DNA of 64,000 bases from Candidatus Saccharimonadales bacterium. Its GTDB lineage: Bacteria > Patescibacteriota > Saccharimonadia > Saccharimonadales > UBA10212. The position numbers were made by a program, and so were the translations under genes. The notes under the pieces were generated by a model. The model did no database searches. It was not told the DNA's origin and saw nothing but the letters and a program-made list of their open reading frames with translations. Shown piece by piece: positions 1 through 27,421 of this stretch. Numbering within the stretch: the stretch's first letter is position 1; each line of letters opens with the position of its first letter. The stretch is taken from assembly GCA_038245195.1 (NCBI GenBank), contig JBBRSU010000002.1, positions 35,091-99,090 on the forward strand, read 5' to 3'.

Positions 1-720
1 TGGCTTTACATACTGGTCAAAGTACCCCTGAGTTAACGGATAGACTGGACCAATGATTAATAATCGATGATTTGTGCTTTTAGCGACTTGGATAGCTTCA
101 CGAACTCCCTTTTCGGGGGCAATCCGACCAGCAAATAGCAGGTAATCTTCTGGTTCATCACAGAAGGGATAATCGCTAGGGTTAACGCCGTTATATATTG
201 TCCCAATATACGGCAGGTCTGTACCATCCCGTCTTTGATTGTTGGAGATAGAAACGAACCTTTGATTAGGTGTACTGTAAAGCTCAAATATTTCTTTTGA
301 CCAGTCGTGAATTGGGTCGTGAAGAGTATATAAAACCGGTACATCTTGGTAGATTGACCCAAGCAGCAGTGCGGTCTCGGGGTGATGGAAATGCAGTACG
401 TCATACCTACCCATTCTGGCTCGCTCAAACATCTCCTTAACCATTCGGCTTTCCCACATTCCCGGAAAGTAGTGGACCATTCTATCGATGTTAGTTATGA
501 GCTCGTTGAAATCGTGCTCATTTTCAGCTAACGGCCTAAGGCCAATAGATTCAATATTGATCTTTTTTAACTTACTACCCAATGGTGCAAAAAAATCTAC
601 GGAATGACCATGTTTGGTTAGACCTTCGGCAATTGCTACTGCTAGGTCAATTGGGGCATAAATCATGTCGGACGGTGTGGGCACTGGTAAATAACCACGA
701 ACCATCATCGCAATTTTCAT
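1..720 (-). CDS. Glycosyltransferase family 4 (GT-B fold), N-terminal ~240 codons; the 3' end runs off the left window edge
   Basis: It is absent from the ORF track because it has no in-window stop. Manual translation of the minus strand from the ATG at 720-718 gives an uninterrupted frame: MKIAMMVRGYLPVPTPSDMIYAPIDLAVAIAEGLTKHGHSVDFFAP...YDVLHFHHPETALLLGSIYQDVPVLYTLHDP...RFVSISNNQR...LLFAGRIAPEKGVREAIQVAK. This is a typical GT4 N-domain plus the start of the GRxxxxKG motif. Confidence 0.8.
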   Translation of the reverse strand, partial: MKIAMMVRGYLPVPTPSDMIYAPIDLAVAIAEGLTKHGHSVDFFAPLGSKLKKINIESIGLRPLAENEHDFNELITNIDRMVHYFPGMWESRMVKEMFERARMGRYDVLHFHHPETALLLGSIYQDVPVLYTLHDPIHDWSKEIFELYSTPNQRFVSISNNQRRDGTDLPYIGTIYNGVNPSDYPFCDEPEDYLLFAGRIAPEKGVREAIQVAKSTNHRLLIIGPVYPLTQGYFDQYVKP

Positions 721-4045: not shown

Positions 4046-7000
4046 TTACTCCTTAGAAGCAACCATTTCTGAACGTTGAACTGCTTCGCGCTCGTCTTCA
4101 AGCTCTTCAAGTGGCTTAGCTCCAGTACCCACCGGTATCCTTCGGCCGAGAATTACATTTTCTTTTAGGCCGTACAAATGATCAACCTTACCACTGGTAG
4201 CGGCGGCAATTAAGACTCTGGTGGTGTCTTGGAATGAAGCGGCCGATAGGAAAGAGTCGGTTGATAGTGAGGCTTTGGTTATTCCCAAAAGTAACTGAGT
4301 GTATTTAACGATGTTTTTACCAGCTTCGGCTAAATTGGTGTTGGCGTCTTCGACGGCCAGCTTGCTGACAACATCGCCAGTGATGAACTCGCTGTTCCCA
4401 GCATCCTCGATTTGAACTCGGCTGAACATCTGTCTCACGATGACTTCAAGGTGTTTATCGGCAATTGTTTGGCCTTGACTAGCGAAGATGTACAGGATTT
4501 CATTCATGATATAACGCTGCGTAGCATCAACGCTTTGCAGACGCATTAAGTCATGTAAATTAATAGAGCCATTGGTTAAACGTTGACCAGCTACGACTTC
4601 GTCACCATCTGCGACCTGCATCTGTTTAAAGCCGGGAATTTCGTAGCGCATCATGGTTTTGGCGGTAGGTGTGATTGTGATTACACCGTCTTGGACATGA
4701 GCCTTGCCAGTCATTGGTGCAGTGATTGGCTCGCTTTGGTCTTCCTGAGCGGCTACAACATCACCAAGATTAACTTCGTTGCCATCTTTGATTTGGGCAG
4801 TTCGGCCGTTGAGCTCAATTTCTATGGCCTTTTGCTTCTTTGCGGTTACCTGAGCGATATAATGATCGCCTTCTTCCCAAAGATTTACCTTGCCAGAGAT
4901 ATCTGTGAGATAAGCTTGGCCTTTAGGAATCCGGACTTCTAGAAGCTCTTCTACGCGGGTAAGGCCCTGCGTAACGTCATCGCTAGCAGTTACAGCACCG
5001 GCACGGTGCTTAGAGTCAAGTGACAGCTGAGTACCAGGCTCACCGATAGACTGAGCGGCCACAACCCCAATTGGATAATCGGAAGCTACTAGTTCTCTGG
5101 TAGCTAGATCAACCCCATAACTTTCACGGCTGACGCCCCGAGTATTAATGTTTGATAGAACGCTCTTGATACGAACCGTGGCAACCGCAGCGTCTTCGTG
5201 AATGGCTTTGGCGATTTTCTCCGTGATTAGCTCACCAGCCTTAACATGTTTCTTGACATTTTCGGCGGCAAATCGGCCCTCGAGACGATTGCCGAAGTCG
5301 ATGCCTATCGCCTCTGATTCGACTCGTCGGAGCTCAAAACCGGGGTCACCAGCGTCTTGCTCGACAGTGAACACGTCTTGGGCAACGTCTACTAAGCGGC
5401 GAGTAAGATAACCTGAATCGGCGGTACGCAAGGCAATGTCGATTAGAGACTTACGGGTACCTCTTGTGGCCGTAAAGTATTCCAGCGGATTGAGGCCGTA
5501 CTTATAGTTAGATCGAACTGGTAGCTCCATAGCTCGGCCAGTGGCATCGGCTCGAATGCCAATCATGCCAACCGAGTCTTTCATCTGGCTCAAGTTACCT
5601 CGAGCACCGGAAGCCACTGCGATTGACATGGTGTTATCTTCAGTGGCGAACTGCTCGGCTAACGCTTTTTCGACTCGACTGTCAACTTCCGACCAAGCTT
5701 CCACTGTTAAGCGATAGCGCTCGTCGTCGGTAATGAAACCGGAGGCGTATTGCTTAGAAACTTCGGTGGCATTCTTTTCGCCTTCGTCAACAATGCCGGA
5801 TAGAACCTTTAGGTCCGAGAAGTCGTCCATGCCTATAGAGATTCCAGACGCGGTGGCGTACTTAAAGCCGAGGTCTTTCAAATCATCGGCAATTTCGGCG
5901 GTCTTTTCCTGACCATAGTTTTGGTGAGTATAACTCATCACAAAATCAAGTTTCTTGTTGTTCATAGTCACATTCTGGAAAGGAAAACCTTCTGGCAGAA
6001 TTTCGTTGAACAATATTCGCCCTGCGGTAGTCTTTTGGATTTCACCACGGAATGGGGCTTCAACTCTAGTCTGTAGGGTAATCTTGTTATCATCTAGGGC
6101 TAGAATTATCTCTTCAACACCGCTGAACTGTCGATATTTGGTTTTTTCGCTACCTGGTCGCTCGTAGGTTAGGTAGTAGCAACCCAAAACAATATCTTGT
6201 TCAACGTGTAGGATCGGTGAGCCATCGGCTGGCTTAAGTAAGTTTTTATTAGCCGCCATAATGTCGCGGGCTTCGGCCTGGGCTTGATCGCTTAATGGTA
6301 AGTGGACAGCCATTTGATCGCCGTCAAAATCGGCGTTAAAACCCTTGCAGACTAATGGGTGAAGCTGAATCGCTTTACCTTCAATTAGCACTGGTTGGAA
6401 AGCCTGGATGCTCAATCGGTGTAGACTGGGTGCTCGGTTTAAAAGCACATACTTACCCTTGATGACTTCATCGAGTGCATCCCAAACAGCAGCTTCGTTT
6501 GATTCAATCATTCTAGTGGCGCTTCTAATATTATGAGCTAATTCTTGGTCGATTAATCGGCCGATTACGAACGGCTTGAACAGTTCCAGGGCCATCGTTT
6601 TAGGCAAACCGCATTGGTGCATCTTTAGTTCTGGACCGGCCACAATTACAGAACGACCAGAGTAGTCTACGCGCTTACCGAGTAGGTTCTGACGAAAACG
6701 ACCCTGTTTACCCTTTAGCATATCGCTAAGGCTCTTTAGACGGCGGCGTTGGCCGGTGGCAGCTACGGCTCGGCCAGAGCGAGTGGAATTATTATCGATT
6801 AGTGCATCGACCGCTTCTTGTAGCATTCGTTGTTCGTTTCGTCGAATAACTTCTGGGGCATTAAGCTCCATCAGTTTTTTGAGTCGGTTATTACGGTTAA
6901 TTACACGACGGTACAAGTCGTTTAAGTCGGAGGTGGCAAAACGGCCACCGGTAAGTTGAACCATCGGCCTTAGATCTGGAGGTATCACCGGTAGCACGCT

Positions 7001-7888
7001 AACCGCTAAACTACTGGGTTTAATCCCGGCCCGTTCCATACTTTCTAGCAGGCGCAAACGCTTCATAATTTTCTTTTTGCGCTGGCCCTTTGCCTCTTCG
7101 GCTTCTTTGTTCAAATCATCAATTAGTTTTAGTAAATCAACTTCTTCGAGCAACTCCTTTAGGGCTGAGCCACCCATGCCGACAGCAACTAATGCTCGTA
7201 ATTCTAACGGCAAGTTACGAAAATCGGTTTCACTCATTAATCGAAATTTTTCTAAGCTTTCGATTTGGGCATTAAAGACTTCGAACTCTTTGGCTAACTC
7301 TTCTAGCTCTTTGGTACGAGCTTCGGCTAACGCATGAACATCAGTGCCGTCAGTCTTGGCTTCGTCTTCGTAGCGAGCATTAATGGCGGTTTCAGCAGCA
7401 GTGAATTCAGCTTGGCGATCGGCCTTAATTTTGTCACGCTCTTCGATATTTACCGATTTTACGATGTAGCTGGCAAAGTAGGCCACTCTTTCAAGGTTCT
7501 TAACAGTTAAACCTAAAAGTAGGCCCATGGCACTAGGTGTACCTCGCAAGAACCAGATATGAGCCACCGGCGCGGCCAGGCTGATATGGCCCATACGCTC
7601 ACGCCGAACTATGCTCCGGGTAACTAGCTCACCGTTCTTATCAACAGCTGCTTCGCGGGAGCGAACTCCCTTGTATTTAGCGTCGTGGGGGTTAATATCC
7701 TTAACCGGGCCAAAAATTCGCTCACAGAACAAGCCATCACGTTCTGGTTTCTGGGTACGATAATTTATGGTTTCAGGTTTTGTAACTTCGCCGTAGCTCC
7801 ATTCCAAAATATCGTCGGGACTAGCAATCGCCAGCCTAACGGCATCAAAATCGGCAATATTGGTTCCACTAGTAGTATATTGACGCAT
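4046..7888 (-). CDS. rpoC: DNA-directed RNA polymerase subunit beta-prime (both Zn-site cysteine sets absent)
   Basis: 1280 aa. It has the catalytic [12 protein letters not shown] motif, [21 protein letters not shown], and trigger loop/bridge helix regions. It lies directly downstream of rpoB with a 2-nt gap. Confidence 0.98.
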   Translation of the reverse strand: [1280 protein letters not shown]

Positions 7889-7890
7889 GG

Positions 7891-10800
7891 TTAAGCCTCC
7901 TCTATGGTTTGGTTTTCTAAATCGTCGAGCTCGGGAGCGACCGTCTCTATAGTAATGCCCTCGTCGTCAGTAATGTGTAGCATATCTTCGGCTACCGACT
8001 CTTCAATCACAGCATTATCGATTACGCTCGGTAGAACGTCGATTGTCGGGATAGTTTTGGCCTCTTCTTTGATATTTTGAGCTAAGATTTCCTCAGCATC
8101 AACCATCTGATTGTTGGCTAAAAGATCAACTTTTAACCCTAAGCCCTGCAACTCTTTAACTAGAACATTGAAGCTCTCTGGAACCTTTGGCCCCTGGATA
8201 GCCGTACCTTTAATGATTGATTCGTAGGCTTTGGCTCGACCGTAAACATCGTCGGATTTGATAGTCAGCATTTCCTGCAGAGTGCTGGCAGCTCCGTAAG
8301 CCTCAAGTGCCCAGACTTCCATCTCACCAAAGCGCTGGCCACCGTTTTGGGCTTTTCCGCCCAGCGGCTGTTGAGTAACCATAGTATATGGGCCGGTTGA
8401 GCGGGCGTGAATTTTATCGGAAACCATATGATTAAGTTTGATGATGTACATACTACCGACGGTAGTTCGCTCGCTAAATGCTTCGCCAGTCCGCCCATCA
8501 TATAGCTGTTGTTTACCGTCTCGAGGTAAACCGGCTTCAACTAACAAGTCCTGAATCTTAGTAATTGGCACACCGTTAAAGGCTGGACTGGCAACTTTTA
8601 TACCAAGGGCACGGGCTGCCATTCCTAAGTGGGTCTCAAACAGCTGGCCGATATTCATACGGCTAGGAACTCCAAGCGGGTTCAAAACAATGTCTATTGG
8701 TGTGCCGTCTTCGTTGAAGGGCATATCCTCGACAGGTAATATTCGAGCGATAACACCCTTGTTACCGTGTCGGCCACCTAATTTATCGCCAACACTAATT
8801 TTGCGCATTTGTGCTACAAACACTTGTATCTGCATTATTACGCCAGCTTTTAGTTCGTGGCCATTAGCTCGGCTGAAAACTTTCACACCGACCACTTTTC
8901 CGTGGCGGCCAGTACTCATACGCTGAGAGGTATCCCGAACTTCTTTAGCTTTTTCACCAAAAATAGCCCGTAGTAACCGCTCTTCGCTAGATAATTCTTG
9001 TTCACCCTTAGGGGTAATTTTTCCGACTAAGATATCTCCTGGGTGAACTTCAGCCCCAATCCGGACAATACCGTCTTCATCAAGGTGCCGTAATGCTTCC
9101 TCTGAAACATTCGGAATATCACGAGTGACGATTTCTGGGCCTAACTTGGTTTCTCGGACTTCGGTCATATAGTCCACAATGTGGATCGAGGTTAGGGTGT
9201 CATCTTCAACTAGTTTTCGACTGAGGATAATAGCGTCTTCGAAGTTATAGCCAGCCCAGGGCATGAATGCCGTCAATAAGTCTTTTCCGAGGGCTAATTC
9301 GCCGTCGGCTATGCTCATACCTTCAATTAGCGAATCGCCGGCTTTGACTTTATCGCCACTTCCAACCACGACTACTTGGTTGATTGAACTGCCTTCATTA
9401 CTCCGGGCAAAATGTATAGGATAATAGGTTGTTTTTCCGGCTTTTTTGTAATTAACAATTACTTCATCTGCGGTGGCTTTTTCAACCACACCATCTTCTT
9501 CAGCGACGGTTAGCTGGCCGGTGTTATGGGCAACAATTGACTCCATGCCAGTTCCGACAATCGGAGACTGTGGTTTGATGAGTGGCACAGCTTGGCGTTG
9601 CTGGTTAGAGCCCATCAGTGATCGTAGGACGTAGTTTTTTTCGACAAAAGGAATTAGACCAGCACTGGAGCCGATAGTTTGGCTTTGGGCGGAGTCCATA
9701 TAAGTGACATCGTCGGCATCAACTTCGCCGGCTTCTAGGTTGGTCCGGGCACTAACTCGACCATCTTTAAAGTAGCCTTTGGTGTCGAGTTCATTACCTG
9801 CACCTGCTATAACTGAGGTCTCCTCTTCGGCAGCATCTAAATAGATGATCTGTTCGGTAACTTTTGCCTTAACCGGCCAGGTGGCTCGACTTTTGACAGT
9901 CGCTAGTCGTTTGGCCGCTGCATCGTTGATGACAGCATCGGCTTTAACAATCACTTTGCCTTTTTCATCTTCTAAATCTACCCGAGCAATGTGGCCAACG
10001 GCGTCTTTTGGTGTCACAGCGTTAATTACTTTTCGATAAGGTGTCTCAACAAAACCATACTCGTTAATTCGAGCGAAGCTAGCTAGGTTTAAGACCAGGC
10101 CAATGTTGGCACCTTCGGGAGTTTCAACAGGGCAAATTCGGCCATAATGGGTGGCATGGGCGTCACGCACTTCAAAACCAGCACGTTCTCGGCTAAGGCC
10201 ACCCGGGCCCATCGAACTTAAACGACGTTTATGAGCTAGTTCTGATAGGGGGTTAATCTGATCCATGAACTGGGACAGCTGGGAGCTAGCAAAGAATTCG
10301 CGGACAGCCGCTACTACCGGTCGAGCGTTGATTAGCTGAGCCGGAGTTACCGTTTCGATTTCGCTCATGCTCATCCGGTCTTTGGCGTTGCGCTCCATGC
10401 GTAGTAGGCCAATTCGGAATTGTCGCTGAACCAGCTCGCCGACCAATTTAACTCGACGATTGGCCAGACTGTCGATTTCATCGGCTGGGTCCTGAGTAAT
10501 ATTTAGTCTGATAATCTCGGCAATAACCGCGATTAAGTCCTCGATTCGCATTACTCGATTATCGATAGTGTTGGTGACATCTAGGTTGAGCCGTTTGTTT
10601 ATCTTGTAACGACCAACTTTCCCAAAATCAAAACGCTTAAAATTATAGAACATGTTCTCTATTAAAGAACGGGCGTTCTCAACGGTCGCCAAATCACCTG
10701 GTCGTAAGCGACGATAAACTTCAATTAAGGCTTCATTGCCGGTGGTTGTTGGATCTTTGACAAAAGTGGCATCAATGTAGTTAAGCTCGCCTTGATCGAC

Positions 10801-11427
10801 ATGCTTAAAGGAATCTTTGATTTGCTCATTGGTTAAACCAAGGGCTTTTAGAAGAGTTGTTACGGCAATTTTGCGTTTACGGTCAATCTTTACGAATAAA
10901 GCACCGTTGGCTGAGGTCTCAAATTCTAACCACGCACCACGGACTGGGATTATTTTGGCACCGTATAGGCTAGTGCCACCGTGAGGATCAGCAGTGAAAA
11001 AAACACCAGATGAGCGAATTAACTGGCTGACTACAACCCTCTCAGCCCCGTTAATTACAAAGGTGCCGCGGCTGGTCATCCAAGGATAGTCGCCCAAATA
11101 GATTTCAGATTCTTTAATTTCACCGGTAACTTTATTGGTTAATTCGATGGTAGCTTTAAGCGGGGCGTCGTAGCTAACATTGTTCTCACGTGCCTCGGCT
11201 TCAGCCATCTTAGGGCTTTCAAAATGATAGTCTTTAAAGCTGATACTTAGTTTTGTGCCGGTATAGTCATCGATTGGACTAATTTCGGCCAATAGCTCAC
11301 CCAAACCTTCATCAACAAACCACTGGAAAGAGGTATTTTGGTGTGAAACCAGGTTGGGAGGATTAATAACATCGTCTTGGTTGGTAAAGTACGTGCGCTT
11401 TGCAATAGTTGCCGAATTTTTTGCCAT
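7891..11427 (-). CDS. rpoB: DNA-directed RNA polymerase subunit beta
   Basis: About 1178 aa with conserved beta motifs (GRHGNKGV, NPLGVPSRMNIGQ, FGEMEVWALEAYGA). The ORF track starts at TTG 11436. I prefer ATG 11427, which lies 11 nt after AAAGGAG, or TTG 11430. The start is uncertain by 3 codons. Confidence 0.96.
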   Translation of the reverse strand: MAKNSATIAKRTYFTNQDDVINPPNLVSHQNTSFQWFVDEGLGELLAEISPIDDYTGTKLSISFKDYHFESPKMAEAEARENNVSYDAPLKATIELTNKVTGEIKESEIYLGDYPWMTSRGTFVINGAERVVVSQLIRSSGVFFTADPHGGTSLYGAKIIPVRGAWLEFETSANGALFVKIDRKRKIAVTTLLKALGLTNEQIKDSFKHVDQGELNYIDATFVKDPTTTGNEALIEVYRRLRPGDLATVENARSLIENMFYNFKRFDFGKVGRYKINKRLNLDVTNTIDNRVMRIEDLIAVIAEIIRLNITQDPADEIDSLANRRVKLVGELVQRQFRIGLLRMERNAKDRMSMSEIETVTPAQLINARPVVAAVREFFASSQLSQFMDQINPLSELAHKRRLSSMGPGGLSRERAGFEVRDAHATHYGRICPVETPEGANIGLVLNLASFARINEYGFVETPYRKVINAVTPKDAVGHIARVDLEDEKGKVIVKADAVINDAAAKRLATVKSRATWPVKAKVTEQIIYLDAAEEETSVIAGAGNELDTKGYFKDGRVSARTNLEAGEVDADDVTYMDSAQSQTIGSSAGLIPFVEKNYVLRSLMGSNQQRQAVPLIKPQSPIVGTGMESIVAHNTGQLTVAEEDGVVEKATADEVIVNYKKAGKTTYYPIHFARSNEGSSINQVVVVGSGDKVKAGDSLIEGMSIADGELALGKDLLTAFMPWAGYNFEDAIILSRKLVEDDTLTSIHIVDYMTEVRETKLGPEIVTRDIPNVSEEALRHLDEDGIVRIGAEVHPGDILVGKITPKGEQELSSEERLLRAIFGEKAKEVRDTSQRMSTGRHGKVVGVKVFSRANGHELKAGVIMQIQVFVAQMRKISVGDKLGGRHGNKGVIARILPVEDMPFNEDGTPIDIVLNPLGVPSRMNIGQLFETHLGMAARALGIKVASPAFNGVPITKIQDLLVEAGLPRDGKQQLYDGRTGEAFSERTTVGSMYIIKLNHMVSDKIHARSTGPYTMVTQQPLGGKAQNGGQRFGEMEVWALEAYGAASTLQEMLTIKSDDVYGRAKAYESIIKGTAIQGPKVPESFNVLVKELQGLGLKVDLLANNQMVDAEEILAQNIKEEAKTIPTIDVLPSVIDNAVIEESVAEDMLHITDDEGITIETVAPELDDLENQTIEEA

Positions 11428-11546
11428 CAAAAGCAATACTCCTTTATTAATAAATTAGTTGTCGCTAAATGCGAAGCCCACTACGTTCGGCGATGCTATT
11501 AGTTCCCCACAGCGCAAGCACCAAAGTACACTACTTCTTACGCTAC

Positions 11547-19654: not shown

Positions 19655-20368
19655 CTAATAGGTCCGGCGTCGAGCTGCCGAGCGCGTTATCAAACTAAGC
19701 GAGTCATCGATGTCTTTTGGCTGGAACTCACCGCAGCGGTTGATAACTGCCAGTTTAATCAGCTCATCACAAAACACTGGATTATTAGGTAAAAACGGAC
19801 CGTGTAGATAGGTTCCAAACACGTTGTTAAACCTAGCGCCTTCGGTTTTATCCTTGCCGTTATTGCCATTACCCCTCTTGACTGTCCCAAGGGAAAGCTG
19901 GCCTTTGGCTAAAAATGTCTGGCCACTATGGTTTTCAAAGCCAAACAAGACCCCAAAATCAGATTTAACCATGACATTGCCAATCATTCGTTTGGTCCCA
20001 CCTATAGTTTCGGCATCGAATACGCCAATGCCTCTAACTTCAGCTCCTGTGCTGGTCACAAAGCGGTGACAAAATAGTTGGTAAGTGCCACAAATTAAAA
20101 CCATTGGGATATTGGCTTCTGCTAGTTGATGTAGAGTGTCGCCAATTCTTAAAATGTCGGCCTGAACATCAACTTGGGCCGAATCTTGACCGCCACCGCC
20201 AATGACTAAATCAATTTGGTCGGGTATTTTAGAGCCCGGATGATGGAAATGGACTTTAGGCTCAAACCCCTGCTTTTGAAAGCGCTTAGAGAGTGTTAGC
20301 ACGTTCCCATGATCGCCGTAGGTATTAAGTTCATTCGGATACAGGTGCATAATATTTATCGACTTCAT
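19655..20368 (-). CDS. gatD: Lipid II isoglutaminyl synthase, glutaminase subunit (CobQ-type GATase)
   Basis: 237 aa: LYPNELNTYGDHGN, catalytic-Cys context ICGTYQLF, and YLHGP. It overlaps murT by 4 nt. Confidence 0.88.
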   Translation of the reverse strand: MKSINIMHLYPNELNTYGDHGNVLTLSKRFQKQGFEPKVHFHHPGSKIPDQIDLVIGGGGQDSAQVDVQADILRIGDTLHQLAEANIPMVLICGTYQLFCHRFVTSTGAEVRGIGVFDAETIGGTKRMIGNVMVKSDFGVLFGFENHSGQTFLAKGQLSLGTVKRGNGNNGKDKTEGARFNNVFGTYLHGPFLPNNPVFCDELIKLAVINRCGEFQPKDIDDSLSLITRSAARRRTY

Positions 20369-21636
20369 CGACTGTCCTGTTTGGCCAGCTGCTTATGTAA
20401 AACCAGCATGGCAGTATAAGTTGCAAGTATAACTTTTTTACCCTTGGTTTGACTCAACAGCTTTAGACCTGAAATTAGATTTGGCTCAATTGTCGAAACG
20501 GAAACTTCTGAATAGCTGAGCCTAAGAGCCAGGTCAGCCGCACGTCGACCAGAAGCGATGGCAACGACTTTAGTATTTAGAGCCGAAAAATCAACGTCCC
20601 ATAGCCATGAAACGTCGCGACCATCGGCAATATTATCGTTAATGGCAATCATTAAGTTTTGTTTAGCGGCTCCGTACGAAGCCAGGGCCTGACTAAAACT
20701 AGCCGGATTTTTGACTAAAACTAGCTCGATAACTGACCCGTTGCTCAGCTTATAGGTTTCGCCTCTGCCGAATGCTAGCCTAACGTCTGCCAATTGATTT
20801 ATAAGTGTTTGGTCGCTTACTCCGTTTAGTAAGTGTCGAACCAAGGCTAGTGCCGCTGCCCCATTCAGATAATTGTGCTGTCCGGTTAGTTTTAGGCTTG
20901 TCTTATATTTTTTACCATCGATTAAATAAGTCACTAGTTGTCCGTCAAAGTCATAAAGCTCCACATCGGGTAATAGGCTATCGACAGGTTTTTGGACCTT
21001 AGAGTCAACCGAGGCTAAGTCGTAATCGCTAGGAAAAAACTTAGCTAGTCTAGGATTAACTCCAAAGTAATGTAAGTCTGCATTATTTTGTTGCTTAATC
21101 TTCTTTGCCCAGTCTAGAAGGTGTGGATCGTTAGCATTGGTAACTACTCCATTGGCAGCTTGCATGGCCGTTCCAACATAAGCCGCCACTGTATCAACTT
21201 CGCCAAACCTATCCAACTGGTCTCGACTAACATTTAGGCCAAGCACCCAGCGTGGCTTCACCTGTTTCACTAACTGCCTGGCGGTGGCTTCATCGACTTC
21301 CAAAACTGCTAAGTCATATGGTAGTTTTCCACTAATTTTTGCGTGTTGGGAGAGTGATGAAGCGATACCTCTGACCAAATTACTCCCGGTAGAATTTGTT
21401 AAGACTTTTTTGCCGTTAACTTTAAGTAAATGGGTAACAATTTTGGTTGTTGTTGTTTTACCATTCGTGCCGGTTATAATAATGACCCCGTCAGGCAATT
21501 TTTTTAACATTGAGGCCACGTAGCTTGGGAATAAACTCTCAATTACCAGGCCAGGTAGAGCTTGACCACCCGCTTTTCTAAATGATAAACCAAATTTCAG
21601 CGATTTTCCGACTAATGTGCCTGCCACATCGCGCAT
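20365..21636 (-). CDS. murT: Lipid II isoglutaminyl synthase, Mur-ligase-like subunit
   Basis: 423 aa with the Mur ligase P-loop ITGTNGKTTT and the C-terminal DUF1727 signature DGRDVSWLWDVDF. Confidence 0.9.
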   Translation of the reverse strand: MRDVAGTLVGKSLKFGLSFRKAGGQALPGLVIESLFPSYVASMLKKLPDGVIIITGTNGKTTTTKIVTHLLKVNGKKVLTNSTGSNLVRGIASSLSQHAKISGKLPYDLAVLEVDEATARQLVKQVKPRWVLGLNVSRDQLDRFGEVDTVAAYVGTAMQAANGVVTNANDPHLLDWAKKIKQQNNADLHYFGVNPRLAKFFPSDYDLASVDSKVQKPVDSLLPDVELYDFDGQLVTYLIDGKKYKTSLKLTGQHNYLNGAAALALVRHLLNGVSDQTLINQLADVRLAFGRGETYKLSNGSVIELVLVKNPASFSQALASYGAAKQNLMIAINDNIADGRDVSWLWDVDFSALNTKVVAIASGRRAADLALRLSYSEVSVSTIEPNLISGLKLLSQTKGKKVILATYTAMLVLHKQLAKQDSR

Positions 21637-26074: not shown

Positions 26075-27421
26075 CTAGTCTTTTTCTAAGAAGGCATTTA
26101 GGGCACTGCGAACATCTTTAACTGAAGTTAATAACGTTGGTTGTTTAGCACCCCGAATCGCTGGCCCAACCGCCACTTCAAAGCCCATTTTTTTGGCTTC
26201 GGCAATCCGTTTTTCAGCAAACGGTACATGGCGAACTTCGCCAGATAATCCAACCTCCCCGAAGACTACGGCGTTTTTCTTTAACTGCATTCCCTTGGCG
26301 GCGCTGGCAATTGCCATACAGATCGCCAAATCGGCGGCCGGCTCACTTAGGCGAATACCGCCCACAATATTTATATAGATATCTTTATCACCAAGTTTTA
26401 ACTTGGTGCGACGTTCCAGCATAGCCACTAATAGGTTGACTCTGTTTAAATCAATACCACTAGCAGTTCGCTTTGGATAACCGTAGCTAGTCGGATTAAC
26501 CAAAGCCTGTACTTCAACTAAGATTGCCCGGGTGCCCTCCATTGTAGCGTGGACAATCGAGCCGTCACTAACTTGCCGTTCGGCCAGCAAAGCCGCCGAA
26601 GGATTATCAACTGGGCGTAATCCTAGTTCAGTCATTTCAAAAATGCCGGCTTCGTTGGTTGATCCGAAACGGTTTTTAACACCCCTTAATATCTTAAACC
26701 CACCGTATCTGTCACCTTCCAGCTGTAATACCACGTCAACCATATGTTCCAGAACTTTAGGTCCAGCAATCGAGCCCTCTTTGGTGACATGTCCGACTAA
26801 AATCAAGGCTGTGTTACTGCCTTTGGCAGCAGCAGTTAGCAATTGGGCACTGTTGGTTATTTGACTGACATTCCCAGCTGCCGAAGCCACTTCATTGACT
26901 GCAACCGCTTGGATTGAATCTACAATGGCTAGCTCATAACCTCCCGCACCAATGGTGGAAGCGATATCATTAGCCACCGTCGAAACAGCTAATTCCAATG
27001 TTTTATCTTCAACTTTAAGCCGTTCTGCCCGTAAGGCAATTTGTTGGGCGGACTCTTCACCGCTCACATACAGTACTTTATGAGTTTTAGCCAAGTTGTG
27101 AGCCAACTGCAGTAGAAGGGTACTTTTTCCTATCCCTGGTTGTCCGGCTAGTAGATTTACGCTGCCGGCCACAAAACCGCCCCCCAGTACCTCGTCCACT
27201 TCTGTTATTCCGCTTTTCAGACGTGAAGTTTTGGCACTCAAAGCAGCCGATACGGTCTCGGTTGGTAATTTCTTACCACTGCGTCCTGCAGTTGCTGAAC
27301 TTATCTGAACTTGCTCAACTAAACTATTCCATTGGCCACAAGTAGTACAGCGCCCTGACCACTTAGAATAAGTTGCACCGCAATTTGAACAAACAAATTT
27401 TATTCCCAAGGATTTGGCCAT
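26075..27421 (-). CDS. radA: DNA repair protein RadA/Sms
   Basis: 448 aa. It has a C4 zinc finger (CSNCGATYSKWSGRCTTCGQWN), Walker A GQPGIGKST, a KNRFG motif and a Lon-like C-domain. A strong AGGAGGA Shine-Dalgarno sequence lies upstream. Confidence 0.95.
   Translation of the reverse strand: MAKSLGIKFVCSNCGATYSKWSGRCTTCGQWNSLVEQVQISSATAGRSGKKLPTETVSAALSAKTSRLKSGITEVDEVLGGGFVAGSVNLLAGQPGIGKSTLLLQLAHNLAKTHKVLYVSGEESAQQIALRAERLKVEDKTLELAVSTVANDIASTIGAGGYELAIVDSIQAVAVNEVASAAGNVSQITNSAQLLTAAAKGSNTALILVGHVTKEGSIAGPKVLEHMVDVVLQLEGDRYGGFKILRGVKNRFGSTNEAGIFEMTELGLRPVDNPSAALLAERQVSDGSIVHATMEGTRAILVEVQALVNPTSYGYPKRTASGIDLNRVNLLVAMLERRTKLKLGDKDIYINIVGGIRLSEPAADLAICMAIASAAKGMQLKKNAVVFGEVGLSGEVRHVPFAEKRIAEAKKMGFEVAVGPAIRGAKQPTLLTSVKDVRSALNAFLEKD

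Follow-up and report, generated by a model that had tools for sequence, protein, structure and literature searches.

In bacterial RNA polymerase, the two zinc sites of the β′ subunit are regarded as constant, and the second of them, Zn-II, formed in E. coli by C814, C888, C895 and C898, is reportedly needed for the folding and assembly of β′ (PMC11340326). Replacing these cysteines by themselves reportedly leaves E. coli β′ defective in assembly. Zinc-independent 'C-minus' versions are known among the paralogs of the ribosomal proteins L31, L33, L36 and S14. DksA2 is likewise a zinc-independent 'C-minus' version of a zinc-ribbon protein (PMC11672702). RpoC itself has been described as a client whose correct folding depends on zinc (PMC11340326, which cites Markov et al. 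1999, Genes Dev 13:2439), and also as a major consumer of cellular zinc (PMC11340326). In the N-terminal site, Zn-I, residues K74 and K87 of E. coli β′ contact upstream DNA in σ28 complexes (bioRxiv 10.1101/2020.01.02.893370). The searchable full-text literature yielded no report of a β′ without zinc from either Saccharibacteria or CPR.

Here we report on the β′ subunit encoded in a stretch of 64,000 nucleotides (hereafter, the window) from a Candidatus Saccharimonadales bacterium (Saccharibacteria, TM7; Patescibacteria), in which the cysteines of both zinc sites are replaced by other residues.

The rpoC gene and its product

The window contains a single copy of rpoC, within the gene arrangement rpoB-rpoC-rpsL-rpsG-fusA, in which rpoC lies upstream of rpsL, rpsG and fusA, and the end of rpoB, at 7891, is three bases from the rpoC start. 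The main features are:

4046..7888, minus strand: rpoC, β′ subunit, 1280 aa (ORF and translation, Pfam, phmmer, BLASTP)
7891..11436, minus strand: rpoB, β subunit, directly upstream of rpoC, with one Cys in total
6317..6337, minus strand: catalytic NADFDGD motif, intact, residues 518-524 (translation and alignment)

The rpoC product contains the Pfam domains RNA_pol_Rpb1_1/2/3/5 (PF04997, PF00623, PF04983 and PF04998), all above their gathering scores and with E-values from 1.7e-70 to 2.2e-25, and it matched more than 100 solved β′ chains at E=0 in a phmmer search against PDB. It is 41% identical to the E. coli RpoC of a RefSeq genome (BLASTP), and the stretch that holds the Mg-binding catalytic motif, FNADFDGDQMAVH, spans residues 517-529. 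The rpoC of the window is an intact gene that clearly evolves under purifying selection. Its product has four Cys in total (residues 55, 426, 514 and 570), none of them near Zn-I or Zn-II.

Neither zinc site retains its cysteines

The ligand positions of Zn-II were placed by three independent alignments, with phmmer to PDB β′ chains, with BLASTP to E. coli RpoC and with MAFFT, all of which agree. The E. coli motif TEDDCG pairs with VEQDAG of the window, which makes A846 the equivalent of C814, and E. coli SVVSCDTDFGVCAHCYG pairs with SVLSNINTRGVSRESYG, which makes N913, S920 and S923 the equivalents of C888, C895 and C898:

5063..5383, minus strand: former Zn-II domain, residues 836-942 (~100 residues), flanked by the bridge helix and the trigger-loop helix
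5351..5353, minus strand: A846, equivalent to E. coli C814 (Zn-II ligand 1)
5150..5152, minus strand: N913, equivalent to E. coli C888 (Zn-II ligand 2)
5129..5131, minus strand: S920, equivalent to E. coli C895 (Zn-II ligand 3)
5120..5122, minus strand: S923, equivalent to E. coli C898 (Zn-II ligand 4)

The canonical Cys4 set is therefore absent from Zn-II, and the domain has zero Cys and no conserved His. It is nevertheless homologous to the canonical Zn-II domain, with the same place between bridge helix and trigger loop, the same length and the same predicted fold, and both share the flanks RRLVDVAQD..., ...YGxDLA... and AAQSIGEPGTQ. In contrast to the canonical domain, it lacks all four Cys, has another residue in place of Arg883, and carries F840, T841, D848, P849 and F851. 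The site that in E. coli is reportedly needed for folding and assembly is unusable in the window β′.

At the N terminus, a 23-residue module of equal length and in the same place as the canonical Zn-I domain was identified by phmmer, BLASTP and MAFFT, with the E. coli Zn-I stretch pairing with KDINPHDAKYKGVRSREAAVDKNG in the BLASTP alignment:

7631..7699, minus strand: former Zn-I zinc-binding domain, DINPHDAKYKGVRSREAAVDKNG, residues 64-86
7688-7690, minus strand: P67, equivalent to E. coli C70 (alignment)
7682-7684, minus strand: D69, equivalent to E. coli C72 (alignment)
7643-7645, minus strand: V82, equivalent to E. coli C85 (alignment)
7634-7636, minus strand: N85, equivalent to E. coli C88 (alignment)

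The Cys4 set of E. coli Zn-I (C70/C72/C85/C88) is thus replaced by P/D/V/N, whereas E. coli K74 and K87 are kept as K71 and K84. Because these two lysines are conserved, the Zn-I domain appears to have preserved its nucleic-acid-binding surface though not its metal.

These alignments bear out the initial annotation, which had named the same four Zn-II replacements (5120-5353), here recovered in all three alignments with exact codon limits, had described conserved flanks, SGYLTRRLVDVAQDV upstream and AAQSIGEPGTQLS downstream, both of which are present, and had held the N-terminal site to be cysteine-free as well. It had also proposed that the claim would fall if a correct alignment placed Cys/His ligands at the Zn-II positions, and no alternative alignment yields them. 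From the residues at the ligand positions of both sites we infer that the window β′ lacks structural metal.

Both losses are shared by the Saccharibacteria sampled

The relatives examined came from assemblies of NCBI, JGI, ENA and Logan. Among the database proteins, the 120 closest ones (79-90% identity), named 'Candidatus Saccharibacteria' or 'Saccharimonadales' wherever a name is given, are all without Zn-I Cys, and none of them has more than two Cys among its four Zn-II positions. Two more searches, seeded with the most divergent zinc-free sequences, added 118 and 119 cluster representatives, again named Saccharibacteria, and the lowest identity reached in the sample was about 47-50%. None of 361 Saccharibacteria β′ cluster representatives (49-90% identical) has a Cys at any Zn-I position, and at Zn-II they have no Cys (212 sequences), one (138) or two (11), and never more. 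The lone Zn-II Cys of these relatives is nearly always the equivalent of C888, where the window has Asn, and it looks like a relic. The most frequent residues at the four Zn-II positions are A, V and T (58, 11 and 6%, and others) for C814, C, T and S (41, 35 and 10%, and others) for C888, P, S and G (50, 30 and 10%) for C895, and S, A and C (66, 32 and 1%) for C898. The module that replaces Zn-I, DINPHD...REAAVDKNG, is nearly invariant among 241 Saccharibacteria, with H68, D69 and D83 conserved at 96-100%.

Compared with the consensus of 241-361 Saccharibacteria sequences, the window β′ is of the same type, with DINP[HF]D...AVDK at Zn-I, no more than two Zn-II Cys, and D848-P849-G850-F851. That the loss is shared by all 361 Saccharibacteria sampled indicates, at the level of sequence, that both zinc sites were lost before these lineages diverged. 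The initial annotation had considered that cysteines retained in relatives of otherwise identical sequence would point to a sequencing error, but the close relatives among the 361 examined do not keep them. The trait is not peculiar to this genome, being common to all the Saccharibacteria sampled.

Zinc sites in other bacteria

In a domain alignment, 162 canonical β′ from outside the Saccharibacteria all have Cys (100%) in every one of the four Zn-II columns, and hence the change observed at Zn-II is not due to chance. An exhaustive HMMER search was carried out against one representative per 50%-identity cluster, and the best 150 matches were read at the eight ligand positions. All eight Cys were present in 131 of these 150 representatives, in agreement with the earlier view that a β′ devoid of them is unusual for a bacterial RNA polymerase. 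Among the best 150, both sites were lost in the four sequences nearest to the query (P0121-P0124) and in a fragment (P0153), Zn-I was kept and Zn-II lost in four others (P0165, P0174, P0190 and P0210), and the remaining deviations corresponded to truncated proteins or local misalignments. The named representatives of other CPR lineages, i.e. Peribacteria, Parcubacteria/Paceibacterota and 'Patescibacteria group', have all eight Cys.

Among the matches listed from named GTDB species genomes, which are a sample of 80 loci rather than a census, all eight Cys were found in 78, one ORF was truncated, and one showed loss of Zn-II only. The latter is a Verrucomicrobiota MAG (JBCDIN010000033.1, L005; locus L005:201-4259), and among the matches listed it is the closest named relative of P0165, P0174, P0190 and P0210. 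The other loci sampled from Verrucomicrobiota, Kiritimatiellia and Lentisphaerae have retained the Cys4 set. Within a census that beyond Saccharibacteria comprised ~230 sequences rather than all bacteria, these sequences indicate that loss of Zn-II alone arose once elsewhere, independently, in a Verrucomicrobiota-like group. The five Verrucomicrobiota-like β′ resemble that of the window in having lost all Zn-II Cys, but, unlike Saccharibacteria, they keep the full Zn-I Cys4 set and are without the Saccharibacteria-specific F840/T841/D848/P849.

Substitutions and predicted fold of the Zn-II domain

The length of the Zn-II domain is maintained in Saccharibacteria, with an insertion of one residue only, and D848, P849, G850, S909, L911, G918, Y924, G925, D927 and P939 are 90-100% conserved in a clade that is only ~50% identical overall. 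A column-by-column comparison of 358 Saccharibacteria with 162 canonical β′ revealed five residues adjoining ligand 1, each present in 89-100% of the former and in less than 15% of the latter, together with changes at two further positions:

5336..5371, minus strand: F840, T841, D848, P849 and F851, adjoining ligand 1 (E. coli V808, V809, H817, E818 and I820)
F840: 96% in Saccharibacteria; I/V in canonical β′
T841: 96% in Saccharibacteria; I/V in canonical β′
D848: 100% in Saccharibacteria; variable in canonical β′
P849: 96% in Saccharibacteria; variable in canonical β′
F851: 89% in Saccharibacteria; I/L/V in canonical β′
P939: 100% in Saccharibacteria; A in canonical β′
5165..5167, minus strand: K908, equivalent to E. 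coli R883; M 58%, Q 33% and L 5% in Saccharibacteria; Arg 98% in canonical β′

From this contrast we infer that F840, T841, D848, P849 and F851 are candidate compensating residues. Among the five Verrucomicrobiota-like sequences that are independently Zn-II-less, P0165 keeps Arg883, and the other four have M, L, L and C at this position.

Modelling of the segment had been suggested in the initial annotation as a way of seeing what replaces the metal cluster. AlphaFold2, run on residues 836-942 with an alignment of cysteine-free Saccharibacteria only, gave a canonical-like fold with a mean pLDDT of 85.5 and a pTM of 0.76, and the blocks holding the former ligand positions reached a pLDDT of 83-90. 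In Foldseek, the domain model aligned with solved zinc-containing β′ chains at a TM of 0.72-0.80 (TMq) and an rmsd of 2.3-3.3 Å. The domain-only model was used instead of one covering residues 760-1000, whose bridge-helix and trigger-loop flanks, taken in isolation, did not reach a pLDDT of 50 and whose global rmsd amounted to ~19 Å. The model supports the view that the Zn-II domain would retain its fold without metal ligands, although the training of AlphaFold included zinc-containing β′ and the fold may be reproduced whatever the input.

A salt bridge of K922 was considered as a substitute for the metal and rejected because Lys is also the commonest residue at this position in canonical β′ (46%).

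How β′ may dispense with zinc

We consider it probable that both β′ zinc sites underwent a metal-independent remodelling that was fixed at the base of the Saccharibacteria while the small domains themselves were kept. At Zn-II, small non-ligating residues (A/V/T, C/T/S/N, P/S/G and S/A) stand in place of the four thiolates, whose loss is accompanied by bulkier hydrophobic neighbours (F840, F851 and M/L/Q at the Arg883 position), by the invariant Asp-Pro turn D848-P849 and by loss of the nearly universal Arg883. Judging from the conservation patterns, this arginine would normally counterbalance the negatively charged Zn(Cys)4 centre, and a packed hydrophobic and hydrogen-bonded mini-core would take over the cross-linking job of the metal, such that β′ could fold and assemble into the core enzyme without structural zinc. 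The small residues at the ligand positions, the hydrophobic neighbours, the D848-P849 turn and the loss of Arg883 together make such a protein-only mini-core the most likely mechanism by which the metal would be replaced at Zn-II. Two observations count against this explanation: P0165, which lacks Zn-II, retains Arg883, and the window itself has Lys there.

Alternatively, the old sites or their immediate surroundings might continue to bind a metal, either through other ligands (Asp/Glu/His/Ser) or through ligands that a different subunit or factor contributes in trans. Candidates would be D848, D/E857 and D927 at Zn-II, where the former ligand positions are close to the invariant D848 and to conserved acidic residues, and H68, D69 and D83 at Zn-I, whose conservation has been given above. 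Nevertheless, the positions equivalent to the ligands include Pro, Val, Ala and Gly, which are unable to ligate, neither His nor Cys is conserved in the Zn-II domain, a site made up of carboxylates alone would prefer Mg/Ca to structural Zn, and β has only a single Cys; we regard continued metal binding as unlikely.

The Zn-II domain might instead be a decaying, dispensable remnant whose ligands were lost by relaxed selection in a reduced genome. In agreement with this possibility, the identity to the window is lower in the domain (41-75%) than over residues 760-1000 (49-87%), and the ligand-equivalent positions vary among Saccharibacteria. However, the maintained domain length, the many highly conserved positions in a divergent clade and the confidence of the predicted fold all speak against decay, which we hold to be very improbable. 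Finally, an artefact, whether an error in sequencing or assembly, a pseudogene or a faulty alignment that hides the true ligands, can practically be dismissed, given that the four changed Zn-II codons are separate and could not all result from one sequencing error, that the ORF is intact with its catalytic motif and all Pfam domains, that 361 independent relatives are in the same state, and that the three alignment methods concur on a Zn-II domain without any Cys.

With metal-independent remodelling as the preferred explanation, a broader proposal is that Saccharibacteria possess a naturally zinc-free cellular multisubunit RNA polymerase, in which packing of protein alone took the place of both β′ metal centres at the root of the class; we see the arguments for and against this proposal as evenly balanced. 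The window β′ resembles the 'C-minus' proteins (the L31/L33/L36/S14 paralogs and DksA2) in having given up a structural Cys4 zinc site without losing fold and function, but those proteins are extra paralogs induced by zinc starvation, whereas the only rpoC seen in the window is the zinc-free form, fixed class-wide. As it reads, the sequence of the window β′ would contradict the expectation that RpoC needs zinc to fold. If the proposal is true, the zinc requirement for β′ folding and assembly would be contingent rather than fundamental, and a class without both sites would constitute a natural experiment on the actual role of the metal. F840, T841, D848, P849 and F851, together with the Arg883 position, provide a short list of candidates that could be transplanted into E. 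coli β′. Annotation and modelling pipelines that assume the β′ zinc sites would be wrong for Saccharibacteria. Zinc scarcity, or the avoidance of oxidation-sensitive thiolates, might tie the trait to the way of life of ultra-small epibiotic cells, but this is a matter of speculation.

Other features of the window and of its RNA polymerase

Cys accounts for 0.50% of the 20,427 residues encoded by the 51 ORFs of the window. RadA (26075-27421) keeps a CxxC...CxxC zinc ribbon at residues 9-36 (27314-27397, minus strand; Pfam Zn_ribbon_LapB), and an M1 zinc peptidase is also encoded. A genome-wide avoidance of zinc or Cys was therefore rejected as a full explanation on the basis of this Cys content and of the RadA ribbon, whose retention indicates that the loss of zinc sites is selective. 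The MurT homologue (20365-21636, minus strand; Mur_ligase_M and MurT_C) has zero Cys. Solved MurT proteins align with it except for a central segment (query 160-230), which in those proteins we take to carry a Cys4 zinc ribbon, and the window MurT may thus represent a second lost zinc site.

Downstream of fusA, a directly adjacent ORF of 123 aa (57-428, minus strand) has no Pfam match, and the usual tuf/S10 operon was not found after fusA within the window. The annotated start of rpoB is a TTG located three codons ahead of an ATG (MAKNS), and the C terminus of β (7891-8100, minus strand) is a strongly acidic tail of ~70 residues, …DAEEILAQNIKEEAK…DDLENQTIEEA.

The trigger loop of β′ (residues 955-962; 5003-5026, minus strand) reads TQLSLDSKH in the window vs the near-universal bacterial TQLTMRTFH, with E. 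coli M932, R933 and F935 corresponding to L957, D958 and K960. The variants among the 361 Saccharibacteria are LSLDSKH (178), LTLDTKH (119), LTLKTFH (24), LTLRTFH (20) and LKLDSKH (14), and the Asp/Lys form was found only in Saccharibacteria-type sequences among the best 150 cluster representatives. This remodelling, equivalent to R933D and F935K, suggests that the catalytic cycle may differ, and that the Arg which contacts the NTP is missing may be no less notable than the loss of zinc. A further peculiarity concerns residues about 144-211 of β′ (about 7256-7459, minus strand), which do not align with Firmicutes or E. coli β′, the matches resuming at 209-212. The same residues fall inside a single matched stretch with actinobacterial β′ chains (query 12-590/613, phmmer), and other CPR representatives also have sequence there in the MAFFT alignment. 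The region may represent a clamp insertion that is lineage-specific and resembles the actinobacterial type.
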